Positions 39,301 through 58,308 of a stretch of 64,000 nt of DNA are shown piece after piece; positions within the stretch are counted from its first letter, which is position 1, and the number at the start of each line of letters is the position of its first letter. A program made the translations under genes and the position numbers. Source of the DNA: Blastocatellia bacterium. GTDB lineage: Bacteria; Acidobacteriota; Blastocatellia; RBC074. The notes under the pieces were generated by a model. It searched no databases, was not told the origin of the DNA, and saw only the letters and a program-made list of their open reading frames with translations. The DNA is taken from contig JBBQVH010000022.1 in the NCBI GenBank assembly GCA_038211695.1, positions 1,602 to 65,601 on the forward strand, written 5' to 3'.

Positions 39301-39868
39301 GGCCATTGACGTCGCGCCCCGTGATAATGCTTGCGCTGCCGATGAGCCAGTTGAATTGCGTGGGAATCCCTTGCGAATTGACGGCGGTAACGATCATGTA
39401 GCCGGTCTTGCCCGGATCTTCCGTGCTGGCCAGCAGGGTGCGGGTCTGGTTGGCAGTCAAGTTCAGAAACGTGCTGTTGACCTGGCAATCGCGGACGAAG
39501 AACACGCGGACGGTGACGCCGTCGCGCGGATTGGTGTTGGTCAGCGAAATGATCGTGTTGACGCCACTCGGATTCGAATTGTTGCTGGTGTATTTCGGCA
39601 GGAAGAGCAGGCTTCCGGCCTTCGTGTTGCTCGCCGCGCTCTTTGGCGCGTTCGATCCAACCTGCGGAACGCCTGGCCCAACCGATGGCTGATCGTTTTG
39701 AATTGCGGTCAGCAGTGTAGAGGCCGCCGCCGGGCGCGCAATCATCAATGCTGTTAATGACGCGGCCACCAGTCCCAACGTCATCAGAAAAGCAGCAGCT
39801 TTGCGGGAAAAGATAAAGTGAGAGCGTGTGTATTTCATTGGTCTAAATCTGTGAGGGTTGAACTGCAT
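36317..39868 (-). CDS. Large secreted protein: duplicated unknown N-terminal module + PKD, HYR, Ig-like and C-terminal IPT/TIG-like domains
   Basis: 1183 aa with a signal peptide (AAFLMTLGLVAASLTALMIARPAAAS). PKD-like (DGRSSTDPDEGDPLTYKWYDG; NGSQSSDPDLDPLSYVWKDG). HYR-like (DSTAPVMSG...TVIFTARDNAGNETKATMEV). GAGGAG SD before ATG 39868. Confidence 0.8.
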   Translation of the reverse strand: MQFNPHRFRPMKYTRSHFIFSRKAAAFLMTLGLVAASLTALMIARPAAASTLLTAIQNDQPSVGPGVPQVGSNAPKSAASNTKAGSLLFLPKYTSNNSNPSGVNTIISLTNTNPRDGVTVRVFFVRDCQVNSTFLNLTANQTRTLLASTEDPGKTGYMIVTAVNSQGIPTQFNWLIGSASIITGRDVNGHEASYNAVGVAKRTGGAVTVAEGAISAAIKFNDTDYDRLPQAIALDQIQNQDPTLGPTPQSAVRTDVSLFSPLADLGGNASQALRVTAIAYDQSGRPFPQIVDTVCGLNAQVSNIWTVPTLNSFITPERAGWGSFAAQVEGTPVPLLGVSLTDGLGEAHNSARHMQVLSRLDSFSMNVPISTPPIPANNVATSNLPDAPAGSLGASEMKAGSALIFSRFTSGVFGNSQIVITNTHPTQKVRVRVFFTGLADSTLMTDTIISLFPNQTTTINPQDFAANQKGWLFAMAIDARALPLNFNFLIGSARVKEQNGASFGYNALAVAKNAPGTVPRNEDVQTSNLKFDDQNYDRLPATLAIAGLPSQQDNTTMLGYARPPANILDPVNTRGSVVSTVIDELLAAASATAGGLEVRVGNLKPSINAQPITSTILKGHRGWMKLTPGTPIFAWATNLPNTPFTAQTVSSNWTGGLKGGVTLHILATTDSYLLKTASTNPNNHAPTANFETINYGIEARGITGTIVRLDGRSSTDPDEGDPLTYKWYDGETLISSAPISDYRLGIGSHTLKLIVTDGSALSSEPRFTLMEVFDSTAPVMSGIPSKISKTTASNVGSTVTYPLPVAYDAVDGNVPVKSSVLPSYLFPIGKTTVIFTARDNAGNETKATMEVEVKKGGGNFPQTGGTAGNKLPVTANLNDQYVIVDKQREITLQATDADNDPVIFALQGAPAYARLDAIDPVARQAKLILTPHQGDQAVATNVRIVATDGKGGSYYTLYFRIQLSDVENDDTGSGNGPGGGPGPGDGGGGGGGGNTNNAPTARMAPLDATAQATSKQGATVQLNGSQSSDPDLDPLSYVWKDGDAVIAEGAIVNATLPVGIHSITLTVSDGKGGVSTTAPQSIEVLPRPLTIISASPAKLSTFNTITMTVTGTGFTQGTQVRFDCTSFCQGGSQITVTVVSIEEDTIMLNAKTTQKTPFGNRDAVVTNPNGTSAKLSRSNYVSQ
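36890..36913 (-). repeat. (GCC)8 trinucleotide tract encoding Gly8 in a Gly/Pro linker
   Basis: gccgccgccgccgccgccgccgcc on the + strand, equal to GGC x8 in the gene frame (…GDGGGGGGGGNTNN…). Confidence 0.9.
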
Positions 39869-40584: not shown

Positions 40585-42171
40585 TTACTCTTCGTCCTTG
40601 ACCACGACATATCGTGGCCCATCAGAAGTCAGGATGCTGAGTAGCACGCTCTTCTTGTTGCCCAGCTTTTGCAGAGAGGAATTAAATTCATTGAGATTGG
40701 CAATTGGCTGCCGAGCGACTTCTTCGATGACCTGACGAGGCCGCAATCCGGCTGCCCAGGCATTGCTGCTTTGATCCACATCGGTGACCAAAACGCCACG
40801 CGCGCTTTCCGGCAGTTTCAGTTTCCCTGCCATCTCCGATGTCAGTGCTTCGACGCGGACCCCGGAAAGCAGGCCGCCAGCCGCACTTGAGTCGCTGCCG
40901 CCCGCGCCTGGTTCAGCATTTTTCGCCAGTGTATCGTTCTCAACAAGCTTGGCGGAGAGTTCCCGTTCCGTTCCTTCGCGCCAAACTTTGAATTTAACCG
41001 TCGTGCCGGGTGCGGTCTGCGAAACCAGGTTGCGGAACTGAGCGCTGGTTTCGATGCGTTGTCCCTGAAATTCAGTGATGATGTCGCCGCGCTTGACGCC
41101 AGCCTGATCGGCAGCCTTGCCGGGCGTGACTCGCTGGACGAATGCGCCTTTGCTGCCTTTGTAGCCGAAGGCGTCAGCGTAATCAGCCGTGACGGGCGTG
41201 ATTTCCACGCCAAGCATTCCGCGGTGAACCTTGCCGTTGCGCAGCAACTGATCCATCACATCGCGCGCCATCTTGGTCGGAATCGCAAAACCGATGCCGA
41301 TGCTGCCTCCGCTTTGCGACAGAATTTGCGATGGAATTCCGATCAATTCGCCGCGCAGATTGACCAGCGCGCCACCCGAATTACCGCGATTGATGGCGGC
41401 GTCGGTTTGCAGGAAGTCTTCAAATGAAGTTCGGTTGCCGGAAGCGCGGCGGCCTTTGGCGCTGATGATTCCCATCGTCACCGATTGGCCAACGCCGAGC
41501 GGGTTGCCAACTGCCAGCACGATGTCGCCGACTTCAACTTTGTCTGAATCGCCAAACGGCAGTGCGGGTAACCCGCTGGCATCAACCTTGATCAGGGCGA
41601 CATCGCTCGGTGGGTCGGTGCCGATGACCTTGGCTGTGAATTCGCGCCCGTCGGCCAACTCGACCTTGACTCTGTCCGCGCCGTCAACGACGTGGTTGTT
41701 GGTCAGGATATAGCCTTCAGGGCTGACAATCACGCCTGACCCCGTACCAAGAGCCTGCAATGGCCCTTTGCCCTGCGGTTGTTGCTGGCGCGGCGCCACG
41801 CGTGGGCGGCGCGGTGTTCCTTCATCGTCTTGATCCGGGGTGCCAAACAGGTCGCCGAAGGGATCAAAAGAGAAAGGCATTTGTTGTTGTCTGCGGCCTT
41901 CGACGTTGATCACAACAACGGCGGGCGTGACCGCCTTGGCGATCGAAGAGAATCCGCCATTGAGCGTGACTTGCTGATTGATCTGCGGATCGGCCGAAAC
42001 GTAGATCGGGACTTTGTTTCCGCCTCCGCCCTTGAACCAGCCGCGTGAGGTCGCGGCGACACTAAACACGGCGCCGATGAGTAGAACCGCGACGCCAATA
42101 ATACCCATCAGTTTCCAATTGAAGCGCTGATGACGGCCAACGTTGATGACTTGATCGTATCCTGTTTCCAT
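40585..42171 (-). CDS. htrA: Periplasmic serine endoprotease, HtrA/DegP (Do) family with two PDZ domains
   Basis: Triad context TNNHVV, DVALIKV, GNSGGALVN. ATG 42171 is preceded by AAGGAG. The track start (TTG 42243) is less likely. Confidence 0.9.
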   Translation of the reverse strand: METGYDQVINVGRHQRFNWKLMGIIGVAVLLIGAVFSVAATSRGWFKGGGGNKVPIYVSADPQINQQVTLNGGFSSIAKAVTPAVVVINVEGRRQQQMPFSFDPFGDLFGTPDQDDEGTPRRPRVAPRQQQPQGKGPLQALGTGSGVIVSPEGYILTNNHVVDGADRVKVELADGREFTAKVIGTDPPSDVALIKVDASGLPALPFGDSDKVEVGDIVLAVGNPLGVGQSVTMGIISAKGRRASGNRTSFEDFLQTDAAINRGNSGGALVNLRGELIGIPSQILSQSGGSIGIGFAIPTKMARDVMDQLLRNGKVHRGMLGVEITPVTADYADAFGYKGSKGAFVQRVTPGKAADQAGVKRGDIITEFQGQRIETSAQFRNLVSQTAPGTTVKFKVWREGTERELSAKLVENDTLAKNAEPGAGGSDSSAAGGLLSGVRVEALTSEMAGKLKLPESARGVLVTDVDQSSNAWAAGLRPRQVIEEVARQPIANLNEFNSSLQKLGNKKSVLLSILTSDGPRYVVVKDEE

Positions 42172-43238
42172 ACCTCTCACTCCTTTGATCGTGCTGGTAG
42201 ATCGTGCTGGAACTTCTAAGCTTTGCTGCTTGCGATGGCGCAAGCGCAGGGAGAAAACTTACGGTTGCGGTAAGCGAAAATATCTTAGCAATGGCTTGGC
42301 CCCTTTTCAAGAATGTGCATCAGAAGGCCATGAACAGGCATTGGCGCGATTTCCGCCAAAGACTCAAGCCTCTTCGTTAAACAGCGACGGTGCGACAAAT
42401 TACCGCTTGACGGACTTTAGCACGTTGGCTAAGATGCGTCGCGGATAAGGTGTAACGAATCAGAAACGGCAACACCCGATTCTCCTCACTGGTGATGATT
42501 TTAGTTGCTTCTCAATTGCCGTGCCTCACAATTCTTAAAAGATCAATGGTTCAAAGCTAATATCTGCCAAGTCTGATGACGACAAAATTGATGCCCCAAG
42601 GTCTGTGTTGAGAACCTGCGAGTGAGAGTCGAAGAGAGTGTATTGAGGAATTAACGAAAGGATGAGTTCGCCCAACGCCATTCATCATGTGCCCGCCAAT
42701 CCATCTCCCTTGTGCTCCATTCGTAGGCTTACTTATTTTGAAAAGCTTGTTGATCTGTCACGGCAGGATTTGAAAAACAAGCAATCATCTTCCCCTGATC
42801 TGTTTACTTCGACTCAATTGCCTGTCGTGGGTCTGGTGCCCCAAGTTCATAATTCAGGTGCTCCAACAAACATAATCTTTTCGCATTTAAATAGGATCAG
42901 CGCGTGAAAGCGTGTCTTGATTAAGTCAGCGTCGTAGTGTGAGATCACACGCTCAAGAGGCCTTTGTCTGGCCTTGTTGTTTGAGTTGTTGAGATGTGGA
43001 ATGCGTGATCCCGTGTGATGGCCGTTGGCCAATGTGATGTCGCACGGGCAGTGACTGAGGCTTTCAGCTTACGGCTGAAGCTTAGGTCCAATGCCTTCTG
43101 GAATCGGGCAGAGTCTGAGGTTTGGCTCGGGTTTGCCCAAGGTTAGATTGATAGATCATTTTTAGTGGCTAGCCGCGGGGCCTTACGAAGCCGTGCGGCA
43201 ATATCTTCGGCGCCATGGAAAAAGGAGTCTGAAAAACA

Positions 43239-46200
43239 ATGGCTGGTCGCGAATATCTTCTCAGGTTGTGCCGCTTGGCTTCACGCCGGGCGGTAGTCAT
43301 TGCGCTTGTCGCTGTGTGTTTGGCCAGTGCTAGCCTTATTAGCTGGTGGCAGGCATCAGCAGAGCGCTCACTGAATTCATCTGCAGCAACTATATCCCCA
43401 AAGGGAAATGCCGCAACTGCTGGCTCGCTGGTCTCACTAAGCGGTCTCAAATTCGCCCAGGGCGATGGCGCGCAAGGCGCTATGCTCGGTGAGTTCGAAG
43501 GCTACTTCGATGCCAAGACCCGCAGTTTCTCATTGCAGCCCAAGGGCGAGCGGGCGGGCACAGGCAATCGCCAGGCGTTCCGCAGCGATCCGGGTGGTGA
43601 CGTGCCGGTCGGGCCGTCAGGCTTTAGTTTCCGCGTGGTCAGAAGCGATTTCGTCAATACGCCTGACAATCCCGCAACGGTCGTCGGTGAAATTGAACTG
43701 ACGAACAACACAAGCGGCATCCTGTACAACACGCGCGTTGTCTTTACGTCGTTCAAGCTCAGTAATGCTGGTGGCGCGGATGCGGGGAATTTGCCGGGTG
43801 CCAATGGCTTTGCATATTTCAACGATGGCCAAGTCGCCTACAATAACAAGCTAAGCGTTTCTCGTGCTTACGGCGACATTGCGGCGGGCGGGAAGGTCAG
43901 TCAGGTCTGGTCTTTTGCAGTCGGAAACACTCCACCCAGCTTCTTTTTCGCATACAAAGTGATTGCGGACATTGGCGTCGCGGCTGAGAGCGTTGCTCCG
44001 GCGGCGGTGCAGGTGAATGCTTCCACGGGAACCAGCGTCATGATCAATGGCCGCGGATTTACCGGGACGCCAACGGTCCAGCTTGTAGGCGCTTCAACGG
44101 TTGCGCTAACGGGTGTGTCGGCGACGGCTACTGCGATCACGGCAACTGTTCCTGCGGGCACTGCCGCTGGCGCTTACAGCGTTCGTGTGATCAATCCTGG
44201 TGGGACGGCGGGTGGCGCAGGATCAAGCGTGCTGAATGGCAAATTGAAAGTGACGGGCGTGCCTGATGCAGGGCATACCGTTTCCGGCAACATCGCGGCC
44301 TTCGCCGATGCCGGGCCATATTTAGTTTCGGGCAGCGCGACGATCGGTTCGGCGGTGACGATTCCTGCCGGTGCGGTGATTTACGTTGCCGGTGGCGCTG
44401 CGATCACAGTCACCGGTGCTGGAAACATCACGGCAGATGGCGGAATTCCCGGAGTGTCTGCCACGAATCCAAATCAAATCGTGATTACATCTCAGCGTTC
44501 TCCGGGGGCGGCTTTGCCTGCGGCAGGAGCCTGGGGTGGAATCAATGCTACGTCGGTGGCTTCCTCGACGTTGACGATGAGGAACGTCGTGGTCGAATAC
44601 GGCGGCGCGTCGGGCAGCGCGGAAATCAACCTGACCGGTTCGGGGCGCACCCTGCGCTTTACGGACAGCATCGTTCGATCAAGCGCGGGCGCGGGCATTT
44701 CGGCGGCGGGCACGGGCGAGAGCCTGGTCGGCTTTGCGCGCAACCGGGTGGATAACAATGGCACGTCGGCCAGCGACCCGGCGGTGCTGGTCAGCGGTAA
44801 TGCTTCACTCGGTCTGTATGACATCAACAGCGCTAATGCTGCGACCAGCGTTGGCGATCCTTCCTATTTCTACTCATCCGCCAACGATTTCACCAACAAT
44901 CAAGTCAACGCAATTCAGATCGGAACCACTGCTGACGCAGCTTCAAACGATTTCACCAAATCGGGCGTGCTGGTCGGACAGGGGACGACACCGATCAGGA
45001 TTGCAGGCAGTTGCGCAAACCCGGCGATTGTCGGCGCGGTTCCTCCGGCCACTCCGGCGGAACTGACAATTGGCCCGTCAGCCACAATTCAGCTTGCGGC
45101 AGACCTCAACCTTCAAGCCGGTGATTATCCGTCGAATAAAGTCGGGTGTATCGCGGCCAACGGCTATGCCGGAGCCTACATCGGCCCCAAGCCAGGATCG
45201 GCGGCAGTCAACAAGCTGATCTCGTTCGACAAGATTCCGAGCGGCGGTAATTTCAGTGCAATCTTTTTCTCGCGCAACGCGATGGCCAACTGCATTCTGA
45301 ATTACGTCAGCGTGCAGAATGGCGGCGCGGCATCAGCATGCAGTAATGGCAACGGCGAAGTGATTACGGAAGTAATCGGCCTGAAGGTGACCAATTCGGT
45401 GATCACAGGCAGCGCGACAGGCGGTTTGCTGTCAATCGTCGGCGCAAAGGTGGATTCGCGCGGTTCAACGTTGAGCGGCAATGCCATTCCGATTATTGAT
45501 ACCATCGCCGGCGGTCTGCTGGGTGACGGTAACCTTGCCATACAATCCACCGTCTATTTGCCCATTGCGATTGCGACCGATCCCTTAGGCCGCGGCATTT
45601 ACGTGGCCGATTCAGCCGGAACCTTCCTGATCCGCTTCATCAATACGACGCGCAACACAGTGACGATTGGCGGGCAGAAAATTCCCGCCGGTGCGATCCG
45701 CACGGTCATTGGCGCTCCGAACGGCGACGGGGCTGACAACGTGCCCGGCACGACAGCAGACGTTGGCAGCTTGAGCGGTTTGGCGGTCAGCAAGGACGGC
45801 GATCTGGTCTACTGGATTGATCAGGGCGCTTCGGTCATTCGTGTCTACAACGCCTCTGCTTCGCCCAAAGCGGTTGCTGGGGGCAATCTTGCTCCTGGCA
45901 ATGTCACAACTGTGATCAGTATGGGACTTGGCTCCAGCGTCAATGCCCTGGCTGTGAATCCGGTGTCGGGTGAAATCTATGTTGCTGATGCGACAGCGGG
46001 CGTCAATCAGATCTTCAAGTTTGCTCCCACAGGCGGCGCTTTAACGCCGGTTGCAGGGAATGGCGCAAACACCAAATCTGATGATGCCTTCACGCCAGGC
46101 GCGGCAACCAGCAGTCCGCTGCTGCAACCCCGCGCGATTACATTCGATCCGCAAGGCAATCTTTACATCTCTGACACAGGCCACGCCCGCGTGATCAGAG

Positions 46201-47849
46201 TGGATGCGGGCGGCACCGCTTCACTGTTGGCGCAATTCCCGCCCAAGAGCGATCCGGCGGCGATGCCTTACGATAGTAATCCATTCGCCACAGGGCTGAC
46301 CTTCTTCAATGGCAAGCTCTACATTGCCAACGGCAACGCGCAGGACATCGCGCGGATTGACGCGCCGAATAATTTCACGACGATTGCCGGAACGATCAAA
46401 ACTTCCTGCGATTACACCTCTGACACCTGTGGCGATGGCGGGCCGATCGCTCAGGCTCTCTTTAACCTGGTCGGCAGCGTGTCGCAGCCGCCGCTGGTCG
46501 GGTTTTCATCCGACGGCAAAGGACTGTATGTCGCTGATCAAAGCTCGGGCAGCAAAGGCCGCGTCCGGTATCTGAATTTGAGCGCAATGGATACTGAAGT
46601 CGCGGGGATATTGGTGGCGGCCGGCAACATCAATACCATTGCCGGCGCGGGGCTGCCTTCGCCATTCAATGGTGGATTGGCGACCAGCGCCGCTTTCAAC
46701 AAGCCGAGTGGTGTTGGCGTGGACGGTAACGGGAATCTTTGGATTACCGACACGCTGACCAGCAAACTGCGCTTCGTGAATATGGGGACAACGACGATCA
46801 CGATTTTCGCAGGCACGACGGCAACTCAGGATGTGAAGCCGGGCGCGATCGCCGAAGTCAACAAGAACATCGGCGACGGCCCGAACGACGGCGCGCCGGT
46901 TAATTTCGCGGTCTTCGACACTCCGCAGGGATTGACCATCACCGCGCAGGGCATCTTTATAGCGGACTCAAAGTTCGGCGGCACGGTGGCGACCGGCAAC
47001 AAACCGCGTACCAGTTCGCTGCGCTTCATTAACACCACCAGCCAGACGATCACGTTTTATCCCAACGGCGCGACCAAGGTGAATGTTGCACCCGGCAACA
47101 TTGCCAGGATCGTCGGCGGCAGCACCGATCCGAATCTGCCAGGAGATGGCGCGAACCCGCTTGGGGCGAGATTGATCGGCGCGACTGACGTGGCGGTTCA
47201 TCCAACCACGGGTGACCTTTACATCGCCGAAGCCGGGCACGTTACCTTGTCGCGCATCCGCCGCGTGGATCGCAGCACGGGCGCGGTTTCGACCATCCTG
47301 ACGGGGGCAACGAACGATGCCTATCTTGGCGTGTCGTTTGACTCGGTTGGACGGCTGCTGGTCGCCAACGGCGGCTTCAAAACCGGCACTGGCGCGACGA
47401 CCAATCTGGGCAACAGTTCGATTTTGCGCGAGAAGGCTTCGGGACAGTGCGCGACCAACGCGACAAACTGCTTCGATACGATCTTGTCGGGTGGCACAGG
47501 CTCACTGCTGAAGAACCCACGTGATGTCGTCGAAGGCCGTGATGGCGCGTTGTATGTTACCAATGCCGGACCGTCCGAGGTGGGCAAGAGCGATAACAAG
47601 ATTCTGCGCATCGTGGTGTCGGGCACCACGGGCACAGCGTCAGTTTATGCCGGCACCATCCAGGGCTATAGCGGAGACGGGGGACCGGCGATCAACGCGC
47701 AACTCAACCTGGCGTCGGATGATTTCATCATCTCGACCTTCGGCACACCGGTGCTGACTTCGCGCGTGAATGTCACCATTACCATTGGGCTGAACGGAGA
47801 AATCATTTTCGCTGATGCGGCCAATAACGCGATCCGCCGGATTCGCTAA
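43239..47849 (+). CDS. Giant secreted protein: IPT/TIG-like + right-handed beta-helix-like region + multiple NHL/beta-propeller repeats
   Basis: 1536 aa with an N-terminal signal anchor. IPT-like segment (PAAVQVNASTGTSVMINGRGFTG...). Many NHL-type motifs (GIYVADS, LYISDTGHARVIRVD, LWITDT, LYIAEAGH, LYVTNAG). Confidence 0.8.
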   Translation: MAGREYLLRLCRLASRRAVVIALVAVCLASASLISWWQASAERSLNSSAATISPKGNAATAGSLVSLSGLKFAQGDGAQGAMLGEFEGYFDAKTRSFSLQPKGERAGTGNRQAFRSDPGGDVPVGPSGFSFRVVRSDFVNTPDNPATVVGEIELTNNTSGILYNTRVVFTSFKLSNAGGADAGNLPGANGFAYFNDGQVAYNNKLSVSRAYGDIAAGGKVSQVWSFAVGNTPPSFFFAYKVIADIGVAAESVAPAAVQVNASTGTSVMINGRGFTGTPTVQLVGASTVALTGVSATATAITATVPAGTAAGAYSVRVINPGGTAGGAGSSVLNGKLKVTGVPDAGHTVSGNIAAFADAGPYLVSGSATIGSAVTIPAGAVIYVAGGAAITVTGAGNITADGGIPGVSATNPNQIVITSQRSPGAALPAAGAWGGINATSVASSTLTMRNVVVEYGGASGSAEINLTGSGRTLRFTDSIVRSSAGAGISAAGTGESLVGFARNRVDNNGTSASDPAVLVSGNASLGLYDINSANAATSVGDPSYFYSSANDFTNNQVNAIQIGTTADAASNDFTKSGVLVGQGTTPIRIAGSCANPAIVGAVPPATPAELTIGPSATIQLAADLNLQAGDYPSNKVGCIAANGYAGAYIGPKPGSAAVNKLISFDKIPSGGNFSAIFFSRNAMANCILNYVSVQNGGAASACSNGNGEVITEVIGLKVTNSVITGSATGGLLSIVGAKVDSRGSTLSGNAIPIIDTIAGGLLGDGNLAIQSTVYLPIAIATDPLGRGIYVADSAGTFLIRFINTTRNTVTIGGQKIPAGAIRTVIGAPNGDGADNVPGTTADVGSLSGLAVSKDGDLVYWIDQGASVIRVYNASASPKAVAGGNLAPGNVTTVISMGLGSSVNALAVNPVSGEIYVADATAGVNQIFKFAPTGGALTPVAGNGANTKSDDAFTPGAATSSPLLQPRAITFDPQGNLYISDTGHARVIRVDAGGTASLLAQFPPKSDPAAMPYDSNPFATGLTFFNGKLYIANGNAQDIARIDAPNNFTTIAGTIKTSCDYTSDTCGDGGPIAQALFNLVGSVSQPPLVGFSSDGKGLYVADQSSGSKGRVRYLNLSAMDTEVAGILVAAGNINTIAGAGLPSPFNGGLATSAAFNKPSGVGVDGNGNLWITDTLTSKLRFVNMGTTTITIFAGTTATQDVKPGAIAEVNKNIGDGPNDGAPVNFAVFDTPQGLTITAQGIFIADSKFGGTVATGNKPRTSSLRFINTTSQTITFYPNGATKVNVAPGNIARIVGGSTDPNLPGDGANPLGARLIGATDVAVHPTTGDLYIAEAGHVTLSRIRRVDRSTGAVSTILTGATNDAYLGVSFDSVGRLLVANGGFKTGTGATTNLGNSSILREKASGQCATNATNCFDTILSGGTGSLLKNPRDVVEGRDGALYVTNAGPSEVGKSDNKILRIVVSGTTGTASVYAGTIQGYSGDGGPAINAQLNLASDDFIISTFGTPVLTSRVNVTITIGLNGEIIFADAANNAIRRIR

Positions 47850-51348: not shown

Positions 51349-54300
51349 CCCCAGCTAACATGACCCCTGAACGCTGGCAAAAAGTTGAAGAGGTTTTTGA
51401 AACGGCGATCGAGCTTCCGGCCGAAGAGCGCGAAGCCTTTCTGACGCAAGTCTGCGGCGAAGACGACGACTTGCGCACCGAGATCGCTTCGCTGCTGGAG
51501 AACGAAGCCGAAGAGACGTTCTTTCAGTCGGCGGTTAAAGATGGCGCGCAAACCTTCGCCCACGCCGCCGTCGAAGAGATCATCGGCCAGCGCATCGGCG
51601 CTTACCGCATCACCGGTCTGGTTGGGCAGGGCGGGATGGGCGCTGTTTATCGGGCCGTCCGCGACGACGATCAGTTCAATCAACAAGTCGCCATCAAGAT
51701 CATCAAGCGCGGAATGGACACGGGGCTGGTGCTGCGCCGTTTCTGGCGCGAGCGGCAAATCCTGGCCAGCCTGAACCACCAGAACATTGCGCGATTGCTG
51801 GATGGCGGGACGACTCCGGACGGGCGGCCTTACTTTGCCATGGAGTTCATCGAAGGCCAGCCGATCAGCGATTACTGCGAAGCCCGCGAGCTTTCAATTC
51901 CCGACCGATTGAAACTCTTTCGTCAGGTGTGCGCCGCCGTTCAATTCGCTCATCAAAATCTGATCGTCCACCGCGACATCAAACCGGCCAATATTCTGGT
52001 CACTGAAGACGGCACGCCGAAGCTGCTGGATTTTGGCATCGCCAAACTGCTGGCGTCCGACACGGGCCAGGCTTCGACGCGTACCGTCACCGGAATGCGC
52101 CTGATGACGCCCGATTACGCCAGCCCCGAACAGGTGCGCGGCGGAACGATTACGACGGCTTCGGATATTTACAGTCTGGGCACTGTGCTTTACGAACTGT
52201 TGACCGGCCAGCATGCGCATCAATTCAAAACCTACTCGCCTGTCGAAATCGAAGAAACCGTTTGTCTGACGGAAGCCGAAAAGCCCAGCGAAGCTGCGGC
52301 GCGCGCTGAAGGCGGGCACTCGCGCTGGCGCAAGCAATTGGCCGGTGACGTGGACAACATCGTGCTGATGGCCTTGCGCAAGGAACCTGAGCGCCGCTAC
52401 CAATCGGTTGAACAATTTTCCGAAGACATTCGCCGCCACCTGGAAGGTTTGCCGGTCATCGCGCGCAAAGACACGGTCGGTTACCGCACGGGCAAATTCG
52501 CGCGGCGGAACAAACTGGGGATTGCGGCGGTGGCGCTGGTCATGCTGAGCCTGATCGCGGGCCTGATTGCCACGCTGCATCAGACGCGCATTGCCCGCGC
52601 CGAAAGCGCCCGTGCGGAAGGCGAGCGTGCCCGCGCCGAAGCCAATCTGGTAGAAGCCAGAGCGCAAAAAACAGAAGCCGAATCGCAGCGAGCCGAAGCC
52701 CTGCGGCAACGCAGCGAAGCCGATGTTCAGCGCGCATTGGCTGAAGAGCAGCGCGCCGAAGCCCAGGCCCAAACCGTCGAAGCCATGCGCCAACGCGCCC
52801 TGGCCGAAGCCGAGCGCGCCAAAGCCGAAAACCGATTCGGCCAGGTTCGCAAACTGGCCAACACTTTCCTTTTCGATTTCCACGACAAGATTCGCGATCT
52901 GCCCGGTTCGACTCCGGCGCGCGAACTGGTGGTCAAGACCGCGCTCGAATACCTGGACGGTCTGGCACGGGAATCGGCGGGCGACACGGCCCTGCAGTGG
53001 GAACTGGCGACAGCTTATGAAAAAGTCGCCGATGTGCAGGGCAATCCGAATCAGGCCAATCTGGGCCAGACGGCGGCGGCGCTGGAAAGCTATCGCAAGA
53101 CAACGGAGATTGCGGAAAAATTGTTGGCGCGCGATCCGGCCAACGAAAAATTCCTGCGCATGCTGGCTTCGGTTTACAGCAAAGTCGGCCCGATCGAATT
53201 GCGTGGCGGCAAGACCGCGCTGGCCAGACAGACGGCGCAGAAAGGCATCGGCATCGCCGAGCGATTGTTGGCGGTCAGGCCCGCGGACGACGAAGTTTTT
53301 GCGCTGATCATCGTGGGGTACGCCAACATTGGCGCAACGGATCAATTGACCGGCGACATTCCGGGCGCGATGCAAACCGCCCGCCAACGTCTGGCCATCG
53401 CCAACCGCTGGATGGCTGAACGTCCCGGCCCGCGCGCGCGCGCCAGCCTGGCAACCAGCCAGGGCGAGATTGCGGATATTTCGAACCATATGGGAGATTT
53501 GCCCGCCGCATTGGAGCTTTTTCGCCAGGCGCTTGCCTTCTATCTGGTAGCCGTCGAAGAGCAGCCCAATAATGCCCAGGTGCGACGGCAATTGGTTGCG
53601 ATTTATGGAAGGTTGGCCAGTGTGCTGGGCGATCCCAGGGGCATCAATCTGGGAGACACAGCGGCGGCGATCGAACACCAGCGCAAAGCATTGGCGATTG
53701 CGGAGGAGTTGGCGGCGGCGGATCCGAAGAACGTGCGCGCGCGCAACGAGCTGAATTTTCAATACCGCGATCTTGGTTTGCTGCTCGGCGAAACCAATCC
53801 GGCAGAAGCGATAAAGCTTTTTGATCAGGCATTCACCGTCATGAAAGCCACGGCTCCGGCGGGCAGGCCGGTCTCGCGCGAATACGAAGCGATGTACCAC
53901 GCGGAGGTCGCCCAACCCTGGCTCAAGATGGGAAACCGTGCTGCCGCCCGCCAGCACGCCGACCAGGCGGGCGAACTCCTGCGGGCGATTCCTATTCAAA
54001 ACCGCATGTTCACCACTGAGATTGCCGACAAACTCCATCTGGCAATCGGCGATGTGTTATTGGAGACCGGCGATGTGGCGGGGGCGTTGGAAAATTATCG
54101 CCAGGCCCTGTCCTTTGCCGAAGGCGACGTGGCAGCCAGTCCCTTCGATATGGAAAAACGATACGGCCTTGCCTTCTGCCACGAAAAGCTTGGCAAGTAT
54201 CACGTCACGCTGGCCGCGCAAGCCGGTCTGGCCGCCGGTCAACAGACCGAACATTGGCGCGAAGCGCGCGCCCACCATCAGAAAGCCACGCAGGTCTGGA

Positions 54301-54413
54301 ACGAATGGAGCCGATGGGGCAAATCGAGCGCCTTCGATGTCAAAAGAAAAGAACAGACCGCGCGTGCCCTGGCCGAATGCGACGCCGCGCTGGCAAAGCT
54401 GGGAGCGCGATGA
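51345..54413 (+). CDS. Membrane Ser/Thr protein kinase with coiled-coil and TPR-rich extracytoplasmic region
   Basis: GQGGMGAVYRA, VAIKII, HRDIKPANIL, DFGIAK, SPEQ. One TM helix (IAAVALVMLSLIAGLIATL), an RAEA-rich coiled coil, then TPR-like repeats. Confidence 0.9.
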   Translation: MTPANMTPERWQKVEEVFETAIELPAEEREAFLTQVCGEDDDLRTEIASLLENEAEETFFQSAVKDGAQTFAHAAVEEIIGQRIGAYRITGLVGQGGMGAVYRAVRDDDQFNQQVAIKIIKRGMDTGLVLRRFWRERQILASLNHQNIARLLDGGTTPDGRPYFAMEFIEGQPISDYCEARELSIPDRLKLFRQVCAAVQFAHQNLIVHRDIKPANILVTEDGTPKLLDFGIAKLLASDTGQASTRTVTGMRLMTPDYASPEQVRGGTITTASDIYSLGTVLYELLTGQHAHQFKTYSPVEIEETVCLTEAEKPSEAAARAEGGHSRWRKQLAGDVDNIVLMALRKEPERRYQSVEQFSEDIRRHLEGLPVIARKDTVGYRTGKFARRNKLGIAAVALVMLSLIAGLIATLHQTRIARAESARAEGERARAEANLVEARAQKTEAESQRAEALRQRSEADVQRALAEEQRAEAQAQTVEAMRQRALAEAERAKAENRFGQVRKLANTFLFDFHDKIRDLPGSTPARELVVKTALEYLDGLARESAGDTALQWELATAYEKVADVQGNPNQANLGQTAAALESYRKTTEIAEKLLARDPANEKFLRMLASVYSKVGPIELRGGKTALARQTAQKGIGIAERLLAVRPADDEVFALIIVGYANIGATDQLTGDIPGAMQTARQRLAIANRWMAERPGPRARASLATSQGEIADISNHMGDLPAALELFRQALAFYLVAVEEQPNNAQVRRQLVAIYGRLASVLGDPRGINLGDTAAAIEHQRKALAIAEELAAADPKNVRARNELNFQYRDLGLLLGETNPAEAIKLFDQAFTVMKATAPAGRPVSREYEAMYHAEVAQPWLKMGNRAAARQHADQAGELLRAIPIQNRMFTTEIADKLHLAIGDVLLETGDVAGALENYRQALSFAEGDVAASPFDMEKRYGLAFCHEKLGKYHVTLAAQAGLAAGQQTEHWREARAHHQKATQVWNEWSRWGKSSAFDVKRKEQTARALAECDAALAKLGAR

Positions 54414-54483
54414 TTTTCCGCTCCCGCCCATGATTCCTGCCTTCGGCGGCCCCTGAAAAATATCGTAACAGCTCAGCCTTATT

Positions 54484-54668
54484 CGTCCTGTAGGGACGTT
54501 TGAATGTAGGCAGGTCGTTTACGGCCTGCTAATGAAGCGAAGGTATTCCCGTCCCATCGGGACGGTTGACACGGGAAGGCATTCAACCGTCCCGATAGGA
54601 CGGCGGTTTCTACGCTCTACTCGCAGGCCGTAAACGACCTGCCTAAGTTCAGGCCGTCCCGCTGGGAC
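54484..54668. repeat. Composite ~185-nt palindrome: two inverted ~90-nt REP-like units, each with CGTCC(C)-N3-4-GGGACG mini-hairpins and a 23-nt perfect arm
   Basis: 23-nt arms TAGGCAGGTCGTTTACGGCCTGC (54507-54529) / GCAGGCCGTAAACGACCTGCCTA (54623-54645). Mini-hairpins near 54484, 54549, 54587 and 54654. Confidence 0.8.
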
Positions 54669-54834
54669 GAAAAGTGGGTAATTACAAAAAATAAAAAAAT
54701 CTTCTGAGCCGTGATCAATTCGCCTCTTCTTTTTCGCCTGTCAGGTTGAAGGCGATGATGGCTGGCAGCGCAAGAGCGCAACGCGCGGCATTCATCGCCA
54801 ATCACAACGGCAACGAACGAGAAAAGGAAACACA

Positions 54835-55338
54835 ATGAAAATCAAAACAAACGTTAAAGCAGGCTTTCTGACTGGGAACCACAACCAGACGGTGTCGCGC
54901 GGCCTGAAGGTCAAGACCAGCGTCAAGGCCGGATTCAATCCCCAGCCCGACCCGCCGGGCCGCAGCAACCACAACCAGACAGTGTCGCGCGGCCTGAAGG
55001 TCAAGACCAGCGTCAAGGCCGGATTCAATCCCCAGCCCGACCCGCCGGGCCGCAGCAACCACAACCAGACGGTGTCGCGCGGCTTGAAGGTCAAGAGCAG
55101 CGTCAAAGCGGGCTTTCTCTGTGACAACCACAACCAGACGGTGTCGCGCGGCCTGAAGGTCAAGAGCAGCGTCAAGGCGGGATTCAACCCCCAGCCCGAC
55201 CCGCCGGGCCGCAGCAATCATAACCAGACGGTGTCGCGCGGTCTGAAGGTCAAGAGCAGCGTCAAGGCCGGATTCAATCCCCAGCCCGACCCGCCGGGCC
55301 GCAGCAACCACAACCAGACAGTGGCGCGCAGCTTGTAA
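54835..55338 (+). CDS. Cassette-repeat peptide/protein A (6 cassettes; KVKxSVKAGF - variable - NHNQTVSRG)
   Basis: 167-aa ORF. The in-frame 69/90-nt periodicity is conserved at protein level with genes B and C. No signal peptide. Cores are [15 protein letters not shown] (x4) and FLCD. Confidence 0.8.
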
Positions 55339-55540
55339 GGTCAAGACCTTCGTCAAGGCCGGGCTTATTGATCTGACTGACAGGTGGCAAAGATTGGCTC
55401 GGCGGACGAGAATGAAAAGAGGCATTAGCCCGTTCGCGTTCGCCGCGTCAGTGGTAGCCGTCTTGTCGGCCACGGTCTGGGCGGGGCCTCAATCGCCGGA
55501 CGCAAACATCACCAAAAGATCACCAAAACATCATGCCTGA
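55337..55540 (+). pseudogene. +1-frame continuation of gene A: orphaned terminal cassette ([13 protein letters not shown]...) followed by a signal-peptide-like 42-codon sORF
   Basis: Gene A ends AGC TTG TAA G where gene B has AGC CTG AAG G. Skipping T55336 restores [15 protein letters not shown]... An ATG at 55412 then gives MKRGISPFAFAASVVAVLSATVWA-GPQSP..., with stop at 55538-55540. Confidence 0.35.
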
Positions 55541-55686
55541 CGCTGGCCCAGTGCCTATACTCCGCATCGTTGACGGCGGCCTCAAACGAGGCAATCGCCG
55601 TGGCAATTGAAAAAATGATCGTCCGGCTGGCTGTGCGGAAAGCCATCAGCCAGCCGGATGCCAACAACGAGAGAGATTAATACGTC

Positions 55687-56274
55687 ATGAAAACCACGAA
55701 TAAGCAGCAAGTTTTGAAGGTCAAGACCAACGTTAAGGCTGGCGGCTTCCAACTCAACCACAACCAGACAGCGGCGCGCGGCCTGAAGGTCAAGAGCAGC
55801 GTCAAGGCTGGCGGTCTCACCAGTGCTAACCACAATCAGACGATGGCATGTGGCCTGAAGGTCAAGAGCAACGTCAAAGCTGGCGGTCTCGCATCCAACC
55901 ACAACCAGACGGTGGCGTGTGGCCTGAAGGTCAAGAGCAACGTCAAGGCGGGCAGTCTCACCAGCAACCACAACCAGACGGTGGCGCGTGGTCTGAAGGT
56001 TAAGAGCAACGTCAAAGCCGGCAGTCTTACCTCGAACCACAACCAGACGGTGGCGTGTGGCCTGAAGGTTAAGAGCAGCGTCAAGGCTGGCGGCATCATC
56101 GTTAACGACCGAAATCACAACCAGACGGTGGCGCGTGGCCTGAAGGTCAAAAGCAAGCTGAAGGCGGGCGAATATCCGCCCGACCCGTGTCGCACCCGCA
56201 ACCACAACCAGACGGTGGCGCGCAGCCTGAAGGTCAAGACCAACGTCAAGGCAGGGCTGATCGGGCTGTTGTAA
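55687..56274 (+). CDS. Cassette-repeat peptide/protein B (7 NHNQT cassettes + terminal [14 protein letters not shown])
   Basis: 195-aa ORF. Cores are GFQL, GLTSA, GLAS, SLTS (x2), GIIVNDR and [10 protein letters not shown]. The linker residue toggles between Arg and Cys. Confidence 0.8.
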
Positions 56275-56473
56275 TCACGGCTGACCGGACTGAAAGATTT
56301 TTTTGATCGAGATGATAGTTTTGACCGATCTTTTCCGCCTTATCAGGTGAGCGCCGAATGAGGCGCTTAACGAAATGGCAGCGAAGCGGTTTTTCACCAT
56401 TCCCTACAAGGCAGGGGCGGCGGTACTTCGCACGCCGTCCCCAACCGACGATCAAATCGTTATAGGAGAAATC

Positions 56474-57094
56474 ATGAAGGTCAAAACTCAAGTCAAAGCG
56501 GGCGGGATTACTTGGAATCACAACCAGACGACGGTGCGCGTCAAGACTGGCGTCAAAGCTGGCGGGATGAGGGTCAATCACAACCAGACGGCGGTGCGCG
56601 TGAAGACCAGCGTCAAAGCGGGCGGAATACAATTCAACCACAACCAGACGGCGAAAAGCTTGCGTATCAAGTCCGACGTTAAAGCGGGTGGCATTCAGTT
56701 CAACCACAACCAGACGGCGAAGAGCTTGCGCATCAAGTCCGGCGTCAAAGCAGGTGGGATAAGTTTGCAGCACAACCAAACGGCGAAAGGCTTACGCATC
56801 AAGTCCGGCGTCAAAGCTGGCGGCATGAAGGTGAATCACAACCAGACGGTGAAAAGCTTGCGTATCAAGTCCGGCGTCAAAGCCGGACCAGGTAATGGTG
56901 GTGGTGTATGGCTCAACCATAACCCAACAGTGAAGAGCGGCTTGAAGGTCAAGTCGAGCGTCAAGTCGGCCGGCCCTGGCGTCGTGCTTCAGCACAACCA
57001 GACGGTGAAGCTTGGCCTGAAGGTCAAGACCAGCGTCAAAGCGGGCGGAGCCAAGCTCAACCACAATCAGACCGTGGCTGGTGTAATCGCTTAA
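56474..57094 (+). CDS. Cassette-repeat peptide/protein C (9 cassettes; [KR][VI]KxxVKAGG - xxx - [NQ]HN[QP]T)
   Basis: Start set at ATG 56474, preceded by AGGAG with a 5-nt spacer (the track ORF starts at 56375). 206 aa. Cores after GG are ITW, MRV, IQF, IQF, ISL, MKV, (P)GNGGGVWL, PGVVL and AKL. Confidence 0.8.
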   Translation: MKVKTQVKAGGITWNHNQTTVRVKTGVKAGGMRVNHNQTAVRVKTSVKAGGIQFNHNQTAKSLRIKSDVKAGGIQFNHNQTAKSLRIKSGVKAGGISLQHNQTAKGLRIKSGVKAGGMKVNHNQTVKSLRIKSGVKAGPGNGGGVWLNHNPTVKSGLKVKSSVKSAGPGVVLQHNQTVKLGLKVKTSVKAGGAKLNHNQTVAGVIA

Positions 57095-57108
57095 TGGCGA
57101 TGATAATC

Positions 57109-57144
57109 CGCCGCCGAAATTTCCTGGAAAAATTTACGGCGGCG
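57109..57144 (+). other. Stem-loop 15 nt after gene C stop (possible attenuator/mRNA-stabilising hairpin; no U-run)
   Basis: CGCCGCCGAAATTT-cctggaa-AAATTT(A)CGGCGGCG: 14 bp with one bulge. Confidence 0.45.
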
Positions 57145-57192
57145 TGATCAATCCGGCGCGCCGTTATCGCATGTCAAGATGGGAGGGCGAGT

Positions 57193-58308
57193 ATGATCGC
57201 GGCTACCGAACAATCATCATCACAACCGCCGGCAGACCCTGCGGAACAAGCCGTCAGTTTGCACGAAGCGGGCGTCGAGGCTTATCACGCGGGGCACGGG
57301 CCGCGAGCCGAACGGCTGTTTCTGTCGGCGGTGGAATTGTTTGAAACGCACGACGGCGTTGATTCGCCGGACGTAGCGGCAGTGCTCAATGATCTGGGCG
57401 CGGTGGCCGAAGACCGCTGCGATTACGAAACGGCGCTGCGGCGGTTCCGCCGCGCGGCTGAGATCATTGAACCGCTCGGCGATGCGGATGACGAAGATTT
57501 ACGGCGGCTGTGGCTGCAATCGTGGAGCAATCTGGGACGGCTGACCCGCATTCAAGGCCGCTACGACGAGGCAAAGCAGATTTGCAAACGCGCGCTGGAT
57601 TACGCCCAAGCGACCTTCGGGGCTGAAAGTACGGAAGCCGCCGACGCGCTGAACAATCTGGGAATGGTCGGCAAGTTCGCGGGCTGGTTCGACGAAGCCG
57701 AAGGTTATTACCATCGCGCGGTGGCAATTCTGGAGCGCGAACACGGAGCCGATCACGTTTCACTGGCTTCGCTCTTTCACAACTTGGGCGGCCTGGAACA
57801 CGCGCGCGGACGTTTTGCCAAAGGCGAACCATACGCACGCCGCTCGGTTGAATTGCGCGAAAAGGCCGTGGGCAAGGATCATCCCGACGTGGCTGCGGAT
57901 GTGGCCGCGCTGGCCGCACTGCTTGACGGGCAGGGCAAGTATGAAGAGTCCGAACCGCTTTACCACCGCGCACTGGCCATCTTTCGCCGGGTGCACGGCG
58001 AAGAGCATTACGAAATCGCCGTCAATCTGAACAACCTGGCCGCGATTTATCAAGAGCAAGAACGATTCGCCGAATCAGAAGATCACTACCTGCGGGCGCT
58101 GGCCATCAAGGAAAAAATCTTCGACGCCGCGAACGTCGAAATCGCGCTGACGCTGAACAACCTGGCCGTGCTGTATCAGGCTCAGGGGCGTCATGACGAA
58201 GCCGCCGTGTTATTGCGTCGCGCGCTGGCGATCTTTGAACAAACACTTGGCGACGATCATCCGCATCTGGTCGCCTGCCGCGAAAATCTAGCTGGATTTG
58301 TACCGTAG
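57193..58308 (+). CDS. Stand-alone TPR protein (kinesin-light-chain-like TPR_10/12 repeats)
   Basis: About eight 42-aa repeats (…AAVLNDLGAVAEDRCDYETALRRFRRAAEI…, …ALTLNNLAVLYQAQGRHDEAAVLLRRALAIFE…). GGAGG SD. Confidence 0.85.
   Translation: MIAATEQSSSQPPADPAEQAVSLHEAGVEAYHAGHGPRAERLFLSAVELFETHDGVDSPDVAAVLNDLGAVAEDRCDYETALRRFRRAAEIIEPLGDADDEDLRRLWLQSWSNLGRLTRIQGRYDEAKQICKRALDYAQATFGAESTEAADALNNLGMVGKFAGWFDEAEGYYHRAVAILEREHGADHVSLASLFHNLGGLEHARGRFAKGEPYARRSVELREKAVGKDHPDVAADVAALAALLDGQGKYEESEPLYHRALAIFRRVHGEEHYEIAVNLNNLAAIYQEQERFAESEDHYLRALAIKEKIFDAANVEIALTLNNLAVLYQAQGRHDEAAVLLRRALAIFEQTLGDDHPHLVACRENLAGFVP

Follow-up and report, generated by a model that had tools for sequence, protein, structure and literature searches.

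Peptides and proteins which lack a signal peptide and are exported by an ATP-binding cassette (ABC) transporter with a C39 peptidase domain are already known. Such exporters translocate only that part of their substrate which is C-terminal to the cut. Class II microcins and bacteriocins (CvaA/CvaB-type export) are unmodified, signal-less products of 60-200 aa with a Gly-containing site near the N-terminus, and their genes adjoin those for an HlyD adaptor and a C39 exporter. In the prochlorosin and NHLP/Nif11 systems, a three-gene HlyD/ABC1/ABC2 module is found, scattered precursor loci use one exporter, and conserved parts of the precursor are paired with hypervariable ones. In the cyanobactin precursor PatE, recognition-like conserved flanks surround short hypervariable segments and are iterated within one open reading frame (ORF). 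Here, we describe three adjacent genes (A, B, and C) which show likenesses to each of these systems. They are encoded in a stretch of 64,000 nucleotides from a Blastocatellia bacterium (phylum Acidobacteriota; assembly GCA_038211695.1, contig JBBQVH010000022.1, positions 1,602 to 65,601), which is referred to as the window. Their products are built from tandem cassettes in which a Lys-rich segment ending in VKAG (the K-strand) precedes a hypervariable segment.

With a probability of about 0.5, we consider the products of genes A, B, and C to be disordered polycationic pre-proteins which are controlled by a sigma factor/kinase pair, secreted by the adjacent exporter, and active through their variable loops. 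The protein family, its design (tandem cassettes with a variable insert in an invariant cationic frame), and its coupling to ECF43-like sigma/kinase pairs and to a tetratricopeptide repeat (TPR) partner appear to be undescribed.

The cassette genes

A preliminary description of this region, made from the sequence alone, had reported three cassette-built ORFs. All three were recovered with the same positions and lengths (Table 1), and the counts of NHNQT-type motifs agree with the 6 + 7 + 9 cassettes which had been assigned to A, B, and C. In these proteins, the unit reads [LM]K[VI]K[TS]xVKAG, variable segment, [NQ]HNQT, xxRG. The architecture is (K-strand + variable segment) x n, joined by NHNQTxxRG linkers, and approximately 19 of the approximately 23 residues per unit are conserved. 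Conserved flanks indeed surround a truly hypervariable centre. The first cassette begins at Met1 in proteins A and C and at residue 10 in protein B, which has the N-terminal extension MKTTNKQQV and the tail LIGLL. No hydrophobic N-terminus and no Sec or Tat signal was found in A, B, or C, as had been claimed. Acidic residues are as scarce as described (Lys + Arg versus Asp + Glu: 28/5 in A, 34/3 in B, 36/1 in C), whereas Lys and Arg number about 4-5 per cassette, slightly above the 3-4 given earlier. An alternative longer ORF exists for gene C (from 56375). We favour 56474 as its start, based on the ribosome-binding site (TAGGAGAAATC ahead of the ATG) and on family homology.

Tandem Repeats Finder reported periods of 60, 66, 69, 90, 159, and 249 nt for genes A-C (scores 186-860). 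The 90-nt units of gene A, the variable segments of which include FLTG/FLCD, are 97% identical and so reflect recent tandem duplications. The cassette motif was not found elsewhere in the window. For the 19-codon conserved flank, compared cassette against cassette, the proportion of synonymous differences (pS) is 0.25-0.54, and the ratio of nonsynonymous to synonymous differences (pN/pS) is 0.05-0.49. This low ratio argues for selection on the peptide, as had been proposed. Genes A, B, and C are genuine coding sequences under purifying selection and not repetitive DNA which is open by chance.

The TAA stop codon of gene A is the product of a 1-nt insertion relative to gene B (AGCTTG-T-AAGGTC versus AGCCTG-AAGGTC), which truncates the C-terminus of the protein. 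The insertion may be an error of sequencing, or it may reflect either a recent truncation or a programmed frameshift. The out-of-frame remnant of the terminal K-strand and tail (Table 1) runs into a small signal-peptide-like ORF (MKRGISPFAFAASVVAVLSATVWAGP..., ATG at about 55412). In gene B (55828-56060), three linkers read VACG and not VARG as in the family (CGT to TGT), which places three evenly spaced Cys residues into an otherwise Cys-poor protein.

The protein family

Searches of Pfam, NCBIfam, and PDB sequences with A, B, and C returned noise only, and neither the cassette motif nor comparable systems were found described in the literature. The earlier statement that the cassette matches no described precursor family is borne out: the family is undescribed. 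At least 224 matches were obtained from an index of 5.8 billion proteins, and every one is labelled "hypothetical protein". A profile search against 1.84 billion representatives (50% identity clusters) yielded 2,924 matches at E <= 1e-3, with 1,058 at E <= 1e-10. A typical member has 66-120 aa with 3-4 K-strands, and most members are from Blastocatellia. Copy numbers in the family range from 2 to 9, and the genes in the window, with 6-9 K-strands, are unusually long.

In the logo of 343 family cassettes, R-G-L-K-V-K-[TS]-[NG]-V-K-A-G precedes the variable part. Gly comes directly after KAG in 31% of these cassettes and in about half of those in the window, with none in gene A. A length of 4 residues is the commonest for the variable part (233 of 408), the extremes being 3 and about 30. 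Approximately 5% of the variable segments contain a C-x4-6-C-G loop, and these two-Cys loops suggest an oxidising, extracytoplasmic destination. A proline-rich variable type (FNPQPDPPG) recurs in distant members. Family proteins open exactly at a K-strand, with an invariant Met just before it and a strong ribosome-binding site, and end with a K-strand plus a short tail (PPIIxD, G-[VI]-[IV]-x-x-[DE], or LIGLL).

One locus (L001, 9290-9565, minus strand) encodes an acidic "mirror image" of the cassette protein (VEIELTVEE..IAPG-xxx-NHNET, three times, net charge -20). This protein is without a family match, and its gene is placed divergently beside a normal cationic cassette gene. An acidic counterpart as general partner of the family was considered and rejected, L001 being the single example in 58 loci.

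Structures were predicted with AlphaFold2 for protein B (alignment of 117 sequences) and for a typical member of 110 aa (cleaner alignment of 58 sequences). In both runs, the mean predicted local distance difference test score (pLDDT) was about 56, the predicted template modelling score (pTM) was 0.15-0.21, and no secondary structure was obtained. The sequence pattern itself has beta-hairpin character: an alternating hydrophobic/Lys strand is followed by a Gly turn which carries the variable insert and by a putative second strand (hydrophobic-x-hydrophobic-N-H-N-Q-T). AlphaFold2 usually models curli-type solenoids well. A beta-solenoid or amyloid fold was rejected given the disorder in both runs, and the predicted disorder is more in keeping with an unfolded substrate for export, or with a peptide precursor, than with a solenoid.

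Conserved gene context

A genome scan seeded with a gap-free two-cassette alignment yielded 55 loci. Their context was analysed by tblastn with the neighbours from the window and by all-against-all clustering of every ORF in the loci (58 loci were clustered). The loci are mostly from metagenome-assembled genomes of Blastocatellia and Pyrinomonadaceae; a few are from Myxococcota, Planctomycetota (Singulisphaera), Verrucomicrobiota, Eisenbacteria, and Proteobacteria bins.

Only five families of neighbours recur: an extracytoplasmic function (ECF) sigma factor (21 loci), a transmembrane Ser/Thr kinase directly upstream of the cassette genes (22 loci), a cytosolic TPR protein of about 371 aa (24 loci; orthologues are 45-87% identical), an HlyD adaptor (19 loci), and the ABC exporters, consisting of a C39-containing and a second subunit (22 loci). 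Canonically, a sigma gene is followed by kinase, cassette gene(s), and optionally TPR, HlyD, C39 exporter, and ABC2, and the window matches this order exactly (Table 1). The preliminary description had pointed to the C39 exporter 2.5 kb downstream, which is confirmed, but had left out the upstream ECF sigma/Ser-Thr kinase pair, the conserved cytosolic TPR partner, and the common promoter element described below. The linkage of cassette genes to the HlyD/C39-exporter/ABC trio proved to be evolutionarily conserved: the trio is found within 10 kb in 19 of about 58 loci and in no fewer than 17 of 36 genomes. An exporter is present within this distance in about one third of the loci, about one third are "orphan" sigma-kinase-cassette triads, and short contigs and true orphans make up the remainder. 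Where a genome has multiple loci, usually one of them is an exporter locus (for example in CAVUPU01, JBFWUF01, DASUNP01, DATMVD01, DASTMP01, DATCXQ01, CAZXZU01), an arrangement like that of the prochlorosins. In three loci (L005, L006, L007), up to four sigma/kinase pairs are found within 20 kb with cassette genes interleaved, and these sigma-kinase-cassette modules appear to have been expanded locally by duplication.

One further locus (L003, 4254-20576, GCA_028285035.1) carries cassette genes of an NHNET subtype among regulators of the NB-ARC/BTAD and MalT-type TPR kinds. Interleaved with these cassette genes, two genes for NHLP-related precursors and the gene for a radical S-adenosylmethionine (radical-SAM) C-methyltransferase of peptides which are made by the ribosome and post-translationally modified (RiPPs; TIGR03975, 568 bits) are also present. 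The cassette genes, the NHLP-related precursors, and the radical-SAM gene are all upstream of a single TPR-HlyD-exporter module, and this shared module places the cassette proteins among the exporter cargo.

Table 1. Cassette genes, neighbouring genes, and other elements in the window (positions are those of the window).
Feature	Start	End	Strand	Remarks
ECF sigma factor, ECF43-like	50782	51348	+	PF07638, E = 1.6e-54, 185 bits
Hanks-type Ser/Thr receptor kinase	51345	54413	+	Pkinase E = 1e-44 plus TPR matches
Inverted repeat	54501	54651		69-nt arms (81% complementary, 13-nt spacer), between kinase stop codon and gene A promoter
Promoter-like element of gene A	54685	54766	+	A-rich tract, CGTGATC, 17 nt, TTTCGCCTGT, GGTTGAAGG, GC-rich hairpin
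Cassette gene A	54835	55338	+	167 aa, 6 cassettes, net charge +23
Out-of-frame remnant of gene A terminal K-strand and tail	55337	55540	+	continues in +1 frame
Cassette gene B	55687	56274	+	195 aa, 7 NHNQT motifs, 8 VKAG strands, net charge +31
Promoter-like element of gene C	56294	56367	+	T-rich tract, GATGATAG, TTTTCCGCCTTATCAGGTGAG, hairpin AGCGCC-GAATGA-GGCGCT
Cassette gene C	56474	57094	+	206 aa, 9 cassettes, net charge +35
Cytosolic TPR protein	57193	58308	+	371 aa, TPR_12/TPR_10 repeats, without signal peptide
HlyD-family periplasmic adaptor	58424	59578	+	likely start is Met43 of the ORF from 58298
Peptidase-containing ABC exporter	59575	62481	+	Peptidase_C39 E = 2.4e-22, ABC_tran
Second ABC exporter subunit	62478	64000	+	without peptidase domain, extends past the window end

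In the window, the stop codon of the sigma gene overlaps the start of the kinase gene, and the two genes are translationally coupled. In the kinase protein, the cytoplasmic catalytic domain (residues 87-353) is followed by a single transmembrane helix (approximately 395-417) and then by a periplasmic sensor with coiled-coil and TPR. Homology between the cytosolic TPR protein and the TPR sensor of the kinase was considered and rejected: BLASTP between the two window proteins gave no match, and matches with 29-33% identity to kinases from L007 and L014 probably reflect generic TPR similarity. The inverted repeat upstream of gene A occurs once in the window and in none of the 59 fetched loci. It may act as terminator or insulator, or may represent a small mobile element. 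Further upstream (43239-47849, 36317-39868, 40585-42243), genes for large proteins with NHL/TIG and PKD/HYR repeats and for an HtrA-like Trypsin_2-PDZ protease are found. These genes are syntenic in the relative described below (approximately 70% nucleotide identity) and are not kept beside cassette genes elsewhere.

Regulation

In the ECF43 group, the sigma factor is activated by phosphorylation of a Thr in region 2.2, and it is described as being phosphorylated directly, with no accessory proteins (PMC7826278, PMC13147305). EcfP-PknT from Vibrio parahaemolyticus and EcfK-PknS from Xanthomonas citri consist of a PF07638 sigma factor coupled to a transmembrane kinase with periplasmic TPR, with no anti-sigma factor and with a Thr in sigma region 2.2 (PMC13147305). 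The pair in the window is similar in all these respects. It has a PF07638 sigma factor, a co-encoded Hanks-type kinase, no anti-sigma factor, and a region 2.2 which reads IQPTAL, with the Thr present and no acidic DxxD. The pair is classified as ECF43-like on these grounds, and phosphorylation of the sigma factor is predicted. In contrast to the described systems, the pair is repeatedly duplicated per genome, and downstream of every copy comes a cassette gene which has a promoter motif of its own.

A common, family-specific element, which is found upstream of cassette genes only, is present in about 20 loci, 60-140 nt ahead of the start codon of the cassette gene. It consists of an A-rich tract, CGTGA(T/G)C, approximately 17 nt, TTTCGCCTGT, 3-4 nt, GGTGAG, and a GC hairpin. 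A strict version of this pattern has 7 matches in 890 kb of loci, and 4-5 of these are directly upstream of cassette genes. We infer that the element is probably a promoter of the ECF type (-35/-10) which carries an UP-like tract and, in the 5'-untranslated region, a hairpin. No such element was found ahead of gene B, which is therefore probably co-transcribed with gene A. Scans of 54400-57300 for sigma-70 promoters and intrinsic terminators found nothing, and Rfam has no match anywhere in the window. Autoregulation of the sigma gene through the cassette promoter motif was rejected, as the motif has no match upstream of the sigma gene in the window.

Hypervariability against the closest relative

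The closest relative of the window is assembly CAZXZU01 (loci L019 and L022), which is syntenic with it. Sequence identity is 90% for the sigma factor, 74-98% for the cytoplasmic part of the kinase, 87% for the TPR protein, 89% for HlyD, 87% for the C39 exporter, and about 90% for the cassette promoter. The periplasmic part of the kinase shows merely 14-48% (52555-54413 versus L019 8020-9656), and the drop starts at the transmembrane segment. Not a single variable segment of the cassettes is common to both; those of CAZXZU01 include GPGIVL, EGYTGA, EGWTGN, and AFEYG, among others. At the nucleotide level, similarity is lost between 52555 and 54686. In seven triads, identity is 61-85% for the kinase domain versus 17-53% for the periplasmic domain. 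The diversifying parts are the two extracytoplasmic parts of the module, the cassettes presumably being extracytoplasmic.

The orthologous cassette gene of CAZXZU01 (L019 9854-10345, L022 1-3260) is broken by an insertion sequence; L022 has a transposase ORF in minus orientation (about 1900-2900), and this is where the contigs break off. The assembly is labelled "Heliomicrobium", which is probably a binning error.

The exporter and the candidate N-terminal leader

The C39 domain of the exporter is intact: Gln19, Cys25 (MDCGPAAL), the His in THFVVV, and Asp-Pro are all present, and the HlyD adaptor is co-encoded. The best NCBIfam matches of the export trio are NHLM_micro_HlyD, ABC1, and ABC2, all under the cutoff (for the C39 exporter, NHLM_micro_ABC1 with 167 bits versus a cutoff of 853). 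The NHLP and Nif11 leader models (TIGR03793, TIGR03798) have no NCBIfam match above noise in A, B, or C. RTX-type substrates of type I secretion are marked by GGxGxD nonapeptide repeats and a secretion signal at the C-terminus. No match was found to the RTX or HemolysinCabind families in Pfam, and A, B, and C are basic and not acidic. Functional amyloids such as curli CsgA and FapC have a Sec signal, an outer-membrane channel dedicated to their secretion, and a beta-solenoid which is predicted with confidence. In the present case, there is no signal peptide, no csgG- or fapF-like neighbour, and no predicted strand. N-glycosylation of the N-Q-T sequon and Lys-Asn isopeptide bonds were considered and set aside, as no glycosyltransferase or ATP-grasp enzyme is linked.

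Double-glycine leaders end with GG, GA, or GS and have hydrophobic residues at positions -4, -7, and -12 on an amphipathic helix (PMC6363468). The segment preceding the putative cut has 10 residues in the window proteins (20 in protein B), compared with about 15-30 or more in double-glycine leaders. If a cut after VKAG is assumed, the residues are Gly at -1, Ala at -2, Val at -4, Lys at -7, and Arg at -12, and the alternation of Lys and Val is strand-like and not helical. The preliminary description had taken KAGG as a double-glycine processing site. This is at best partly supported: the conserved motif is VKAG, the next residue belongs to the variable part, and positions -7 and -12 are not hydrophobic.

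In their logic, the proteins are like microcins or prochlorosins. In contrast to class II microcins, the candidate leader is short, terminates in VKAG, to which a second Gly may or may not be added, and shows the hydrophobic -4/-7/-12 pattern in part only; the body of the protein repeats the leader-like motif in tandem; an immunity gene was not found; the module includes two ABC subunits as well as a TPR protein; and the host belongs to the Acidobacteriota. The likeness to the prochlorosin and NHLP/Nif11 systems extends to L003, where one exporter module is common to both. It does not extend to an NHLP/Nif11 leader domain or to a LanM or radical-SAM partner, and variability resides within the iterated cassettes and not in one core at the C-terminus.

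Proposed function and alternatives

According to the explanation which we favour, the ECF43-like sigma factor, phosphorylated by the co-encoded receptor kinase, would drive the cassette promoter, as suggested by gene order and the published ECF43 paradigm. The signal-less protein would be handed over to HlyD, the C39 exporter, and ABC2, perhaps with the cytosolic TPR protein as chaperone or adaptor; the conserved linkage points to both. The C39 domain would remove the short N-terminal K-strand leader at the first VKAG(G), and the rest of the chain would cross the envelope unfolded. Outside the cell, the hypervariable segments would be active, either in antagonism, similar to microcins or cationic antimicrobials, or as a strain-specific signal which might be read by the equally hypervariable periplasmic TPR domain of the kinase. 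Further cleavage to single cassettes may occur outside the cell, and no post-translational modification is implied. A putative role in antagonism is supported by the polycationic amphipathic character of the proteins, the microcin-type exporter, the hypervariable segments, the several loci per genome, and the putative disulfide loops. A putative role in signalling or kin recognition is supported by the receptor kinase and sigma factor which accompany each cassette gene, by the periplasmic TPR sensor, which diversifies in parallel with the cassettes, and by the duplication of the triads, which is like that of the Rap-Phr cassettes described below. Antagonism and signalling are not separable by computation, and we keep both possibilities side by side.

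Several observations weigh against this explanation. The leader fits the double-glycine rule poorly, being of 10 residues, with an Ala-Gly end and without hydrophobic residues at -7 and -12, and gene A is without any GG. In two thirds of the loci, an exporter is not found within 10 kb, and some loci (L012, L020, L027, L034) have full 10-kb flanks with nothing linked. Neither an immunity gene nor an outer-membrane channel was identified, nor is any immunity-like gene conserved among the loci. The TPR partner is a member of a generic and very widespread family (more than 1,200 matches to "tetratricopeptide repeat protein" in a homologue search). Periplasmic domains commonly evolve faster, and the parallel divergence of sensor and cassettes may be a coincidence.

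The proteins might alternatively be polyprotein precursors, a possibility which we consider less likely. Cuts at every VKAG(G) or at the NHNQT linker, made by the C39 domain or an extracellular protease, would free each cassette as a cationic peptide (about 20-30 aa) with a variable and a conserved part, as a bacterial counterpart of eukaryotic multi-copy precursors of antimicrobial peptides or pheromones. The iterated units with invariant boundaries, the copy number of 2 to 9, the recent duplications in gene A, the exact coincidence of protein ends with unit boundaries, the predicted disorder, and a C39 domain with intact catalytic motifs next door are all in line with such a precursor. However, GG is present in just 31% of the units, and no second protease is conserved in the loci. 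Moreover, repeated cuts in the cytoplasm would strand internal units, because only the C-terminal part is exported by C39 transporters. Removal of a single N-terminal mini-leader and export of the whole chain are therefore favoured.

In Gram-positive quorum sensing, paralogous receptor-peptide cassettes are known from Rap-Phr and the ComC/ComD pherotypes. There, as may be the case here, many adjacent receptor/peptide modules occur per genome, and both peptide and sensor are hypervariable between close relatives. By analogy, sigma factor, kinase, and cassette gene might form a self-contained triad for peptide signalling or kin recognition. The exported cassette protein, or peptides released from it, would be the ligand of the TPR sensor of the adjacent kinase, which would phosphorylate the ECF sigma factor and switch on the cassette promoter, resulting in an autoinducing, pherotype-like signal in the form of a multi-epitope polyprotein. 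In contrast to the Gram-positive systems, the receptor would be a Ser/Thr kinase acting on an ECF sigma factor and the putative ligand a multi-cassette polycation. We regard a self-contained triad of this kind as unlikely.

It is quite unlikely, in our view, that the proteins stay intact after export and act as disordered polycationic surface or matrix proteins, which would bind polyanions (extracellular DNA, exopolysaccharide, lipopolysaccharide), with repeats providing avidity, or would stack as cross-beta hairpins. The L-K-V-K-T-x-V-K alternation, the Gly turn, and the hydrophobic-x-hydrophobic-N-H-N-Q-T segment have the beta-hairpin character which this requires, the variable inserts would be at the putative hairpin tip, and the acidic mirror-image protein from L001 could be a partner. 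Yet AlphaFold2 gives no beta structure, hypervariability between close relatives is unusual in a scaffold protein, and neither a Sec signal nor a curli- or Fap-type outer-membrane secretion gene is present.

The preliminary description had compared the genes to multi-core RiPP precursors of the PatE type, the 3-11 aa segments being excised and modified and the flanks serving as recognition sequences. Conserved flanks around a hypervariable core are indeed what such precursors have, and L003 has a RiPP radical-SAM C-methyltransferase nearby. That enzyme, however, has its own NHLP-type precursors. Besides the C39 domain, no protease recurs in the 55 loci, flank-specific or other, and neither does a macrocyclase or a modifying enzyme such as YcaO, radical-SAM, or Lan. 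Pfam scans of the neighbouring genes in the window are in agreement. PatA/PatG proteases, a heterocyclase, and a long N-terminal leader, which characterise the cyanobactin system, are not found. The commonest variable segment has merely 4 residues, and the high share of conserved residues per unit (about 19 of about 23) also differs from PatE. The comparison holds for the layout only, and a role as PatE-like precursor is very unlikely.

The least probable of all is a cytoplasmic partner or substrate of kinase and sigma factor, with the NHNQT Thr as multi-site phospho-acceptor or the protein as sigma/kinase buffer: the kinase is directly upstream in about 22 loci, including exporter-less ones, each cassette has the invariant Thr, and there is no signal peptide, but the linkage to exporter and TPR which a third of the loci show, two-Cys loops in some variable segments, hypervariability that is unexpected for a kinase docking motif, and the description of ECF43 with direct sigma phosphorylation and no accessory proteins (PMC7826278, PMC13147305) make it extremely doubtful. 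Both this cytoplasmic role and a structural or matrix role are considered less likely than antagonism and signalling.

Implications

Blastocatellia and related Acidobacteriota are among the commonest soil bacteria and are poorly cultured, and almost nothing is known of the peptides which they secrete or of their signalling. The family described here comprises about 1,000-3,000 sequence clusters, often with several loci per genome, which are unannotated. Its conserved regulation and export context makes it directly testable. The cassette design, in which invariant flanks enclose an insert of 3-30 residues which varies freely, is a natural display scaffold. If the products are antimicrobial, they would represent a new and genetically simple class of cationic peptides which needs no modifying enzymes. 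If they are ligands of the adjacent kinases, they would be the first signals for the large orphan families of ECF43-type sigma/kinase pairs. Signalling of this type would be a new kind of bacterial peptide communication, in a diderm soil phylum and through Ser/Thr phosphorylation of a sigma factor.

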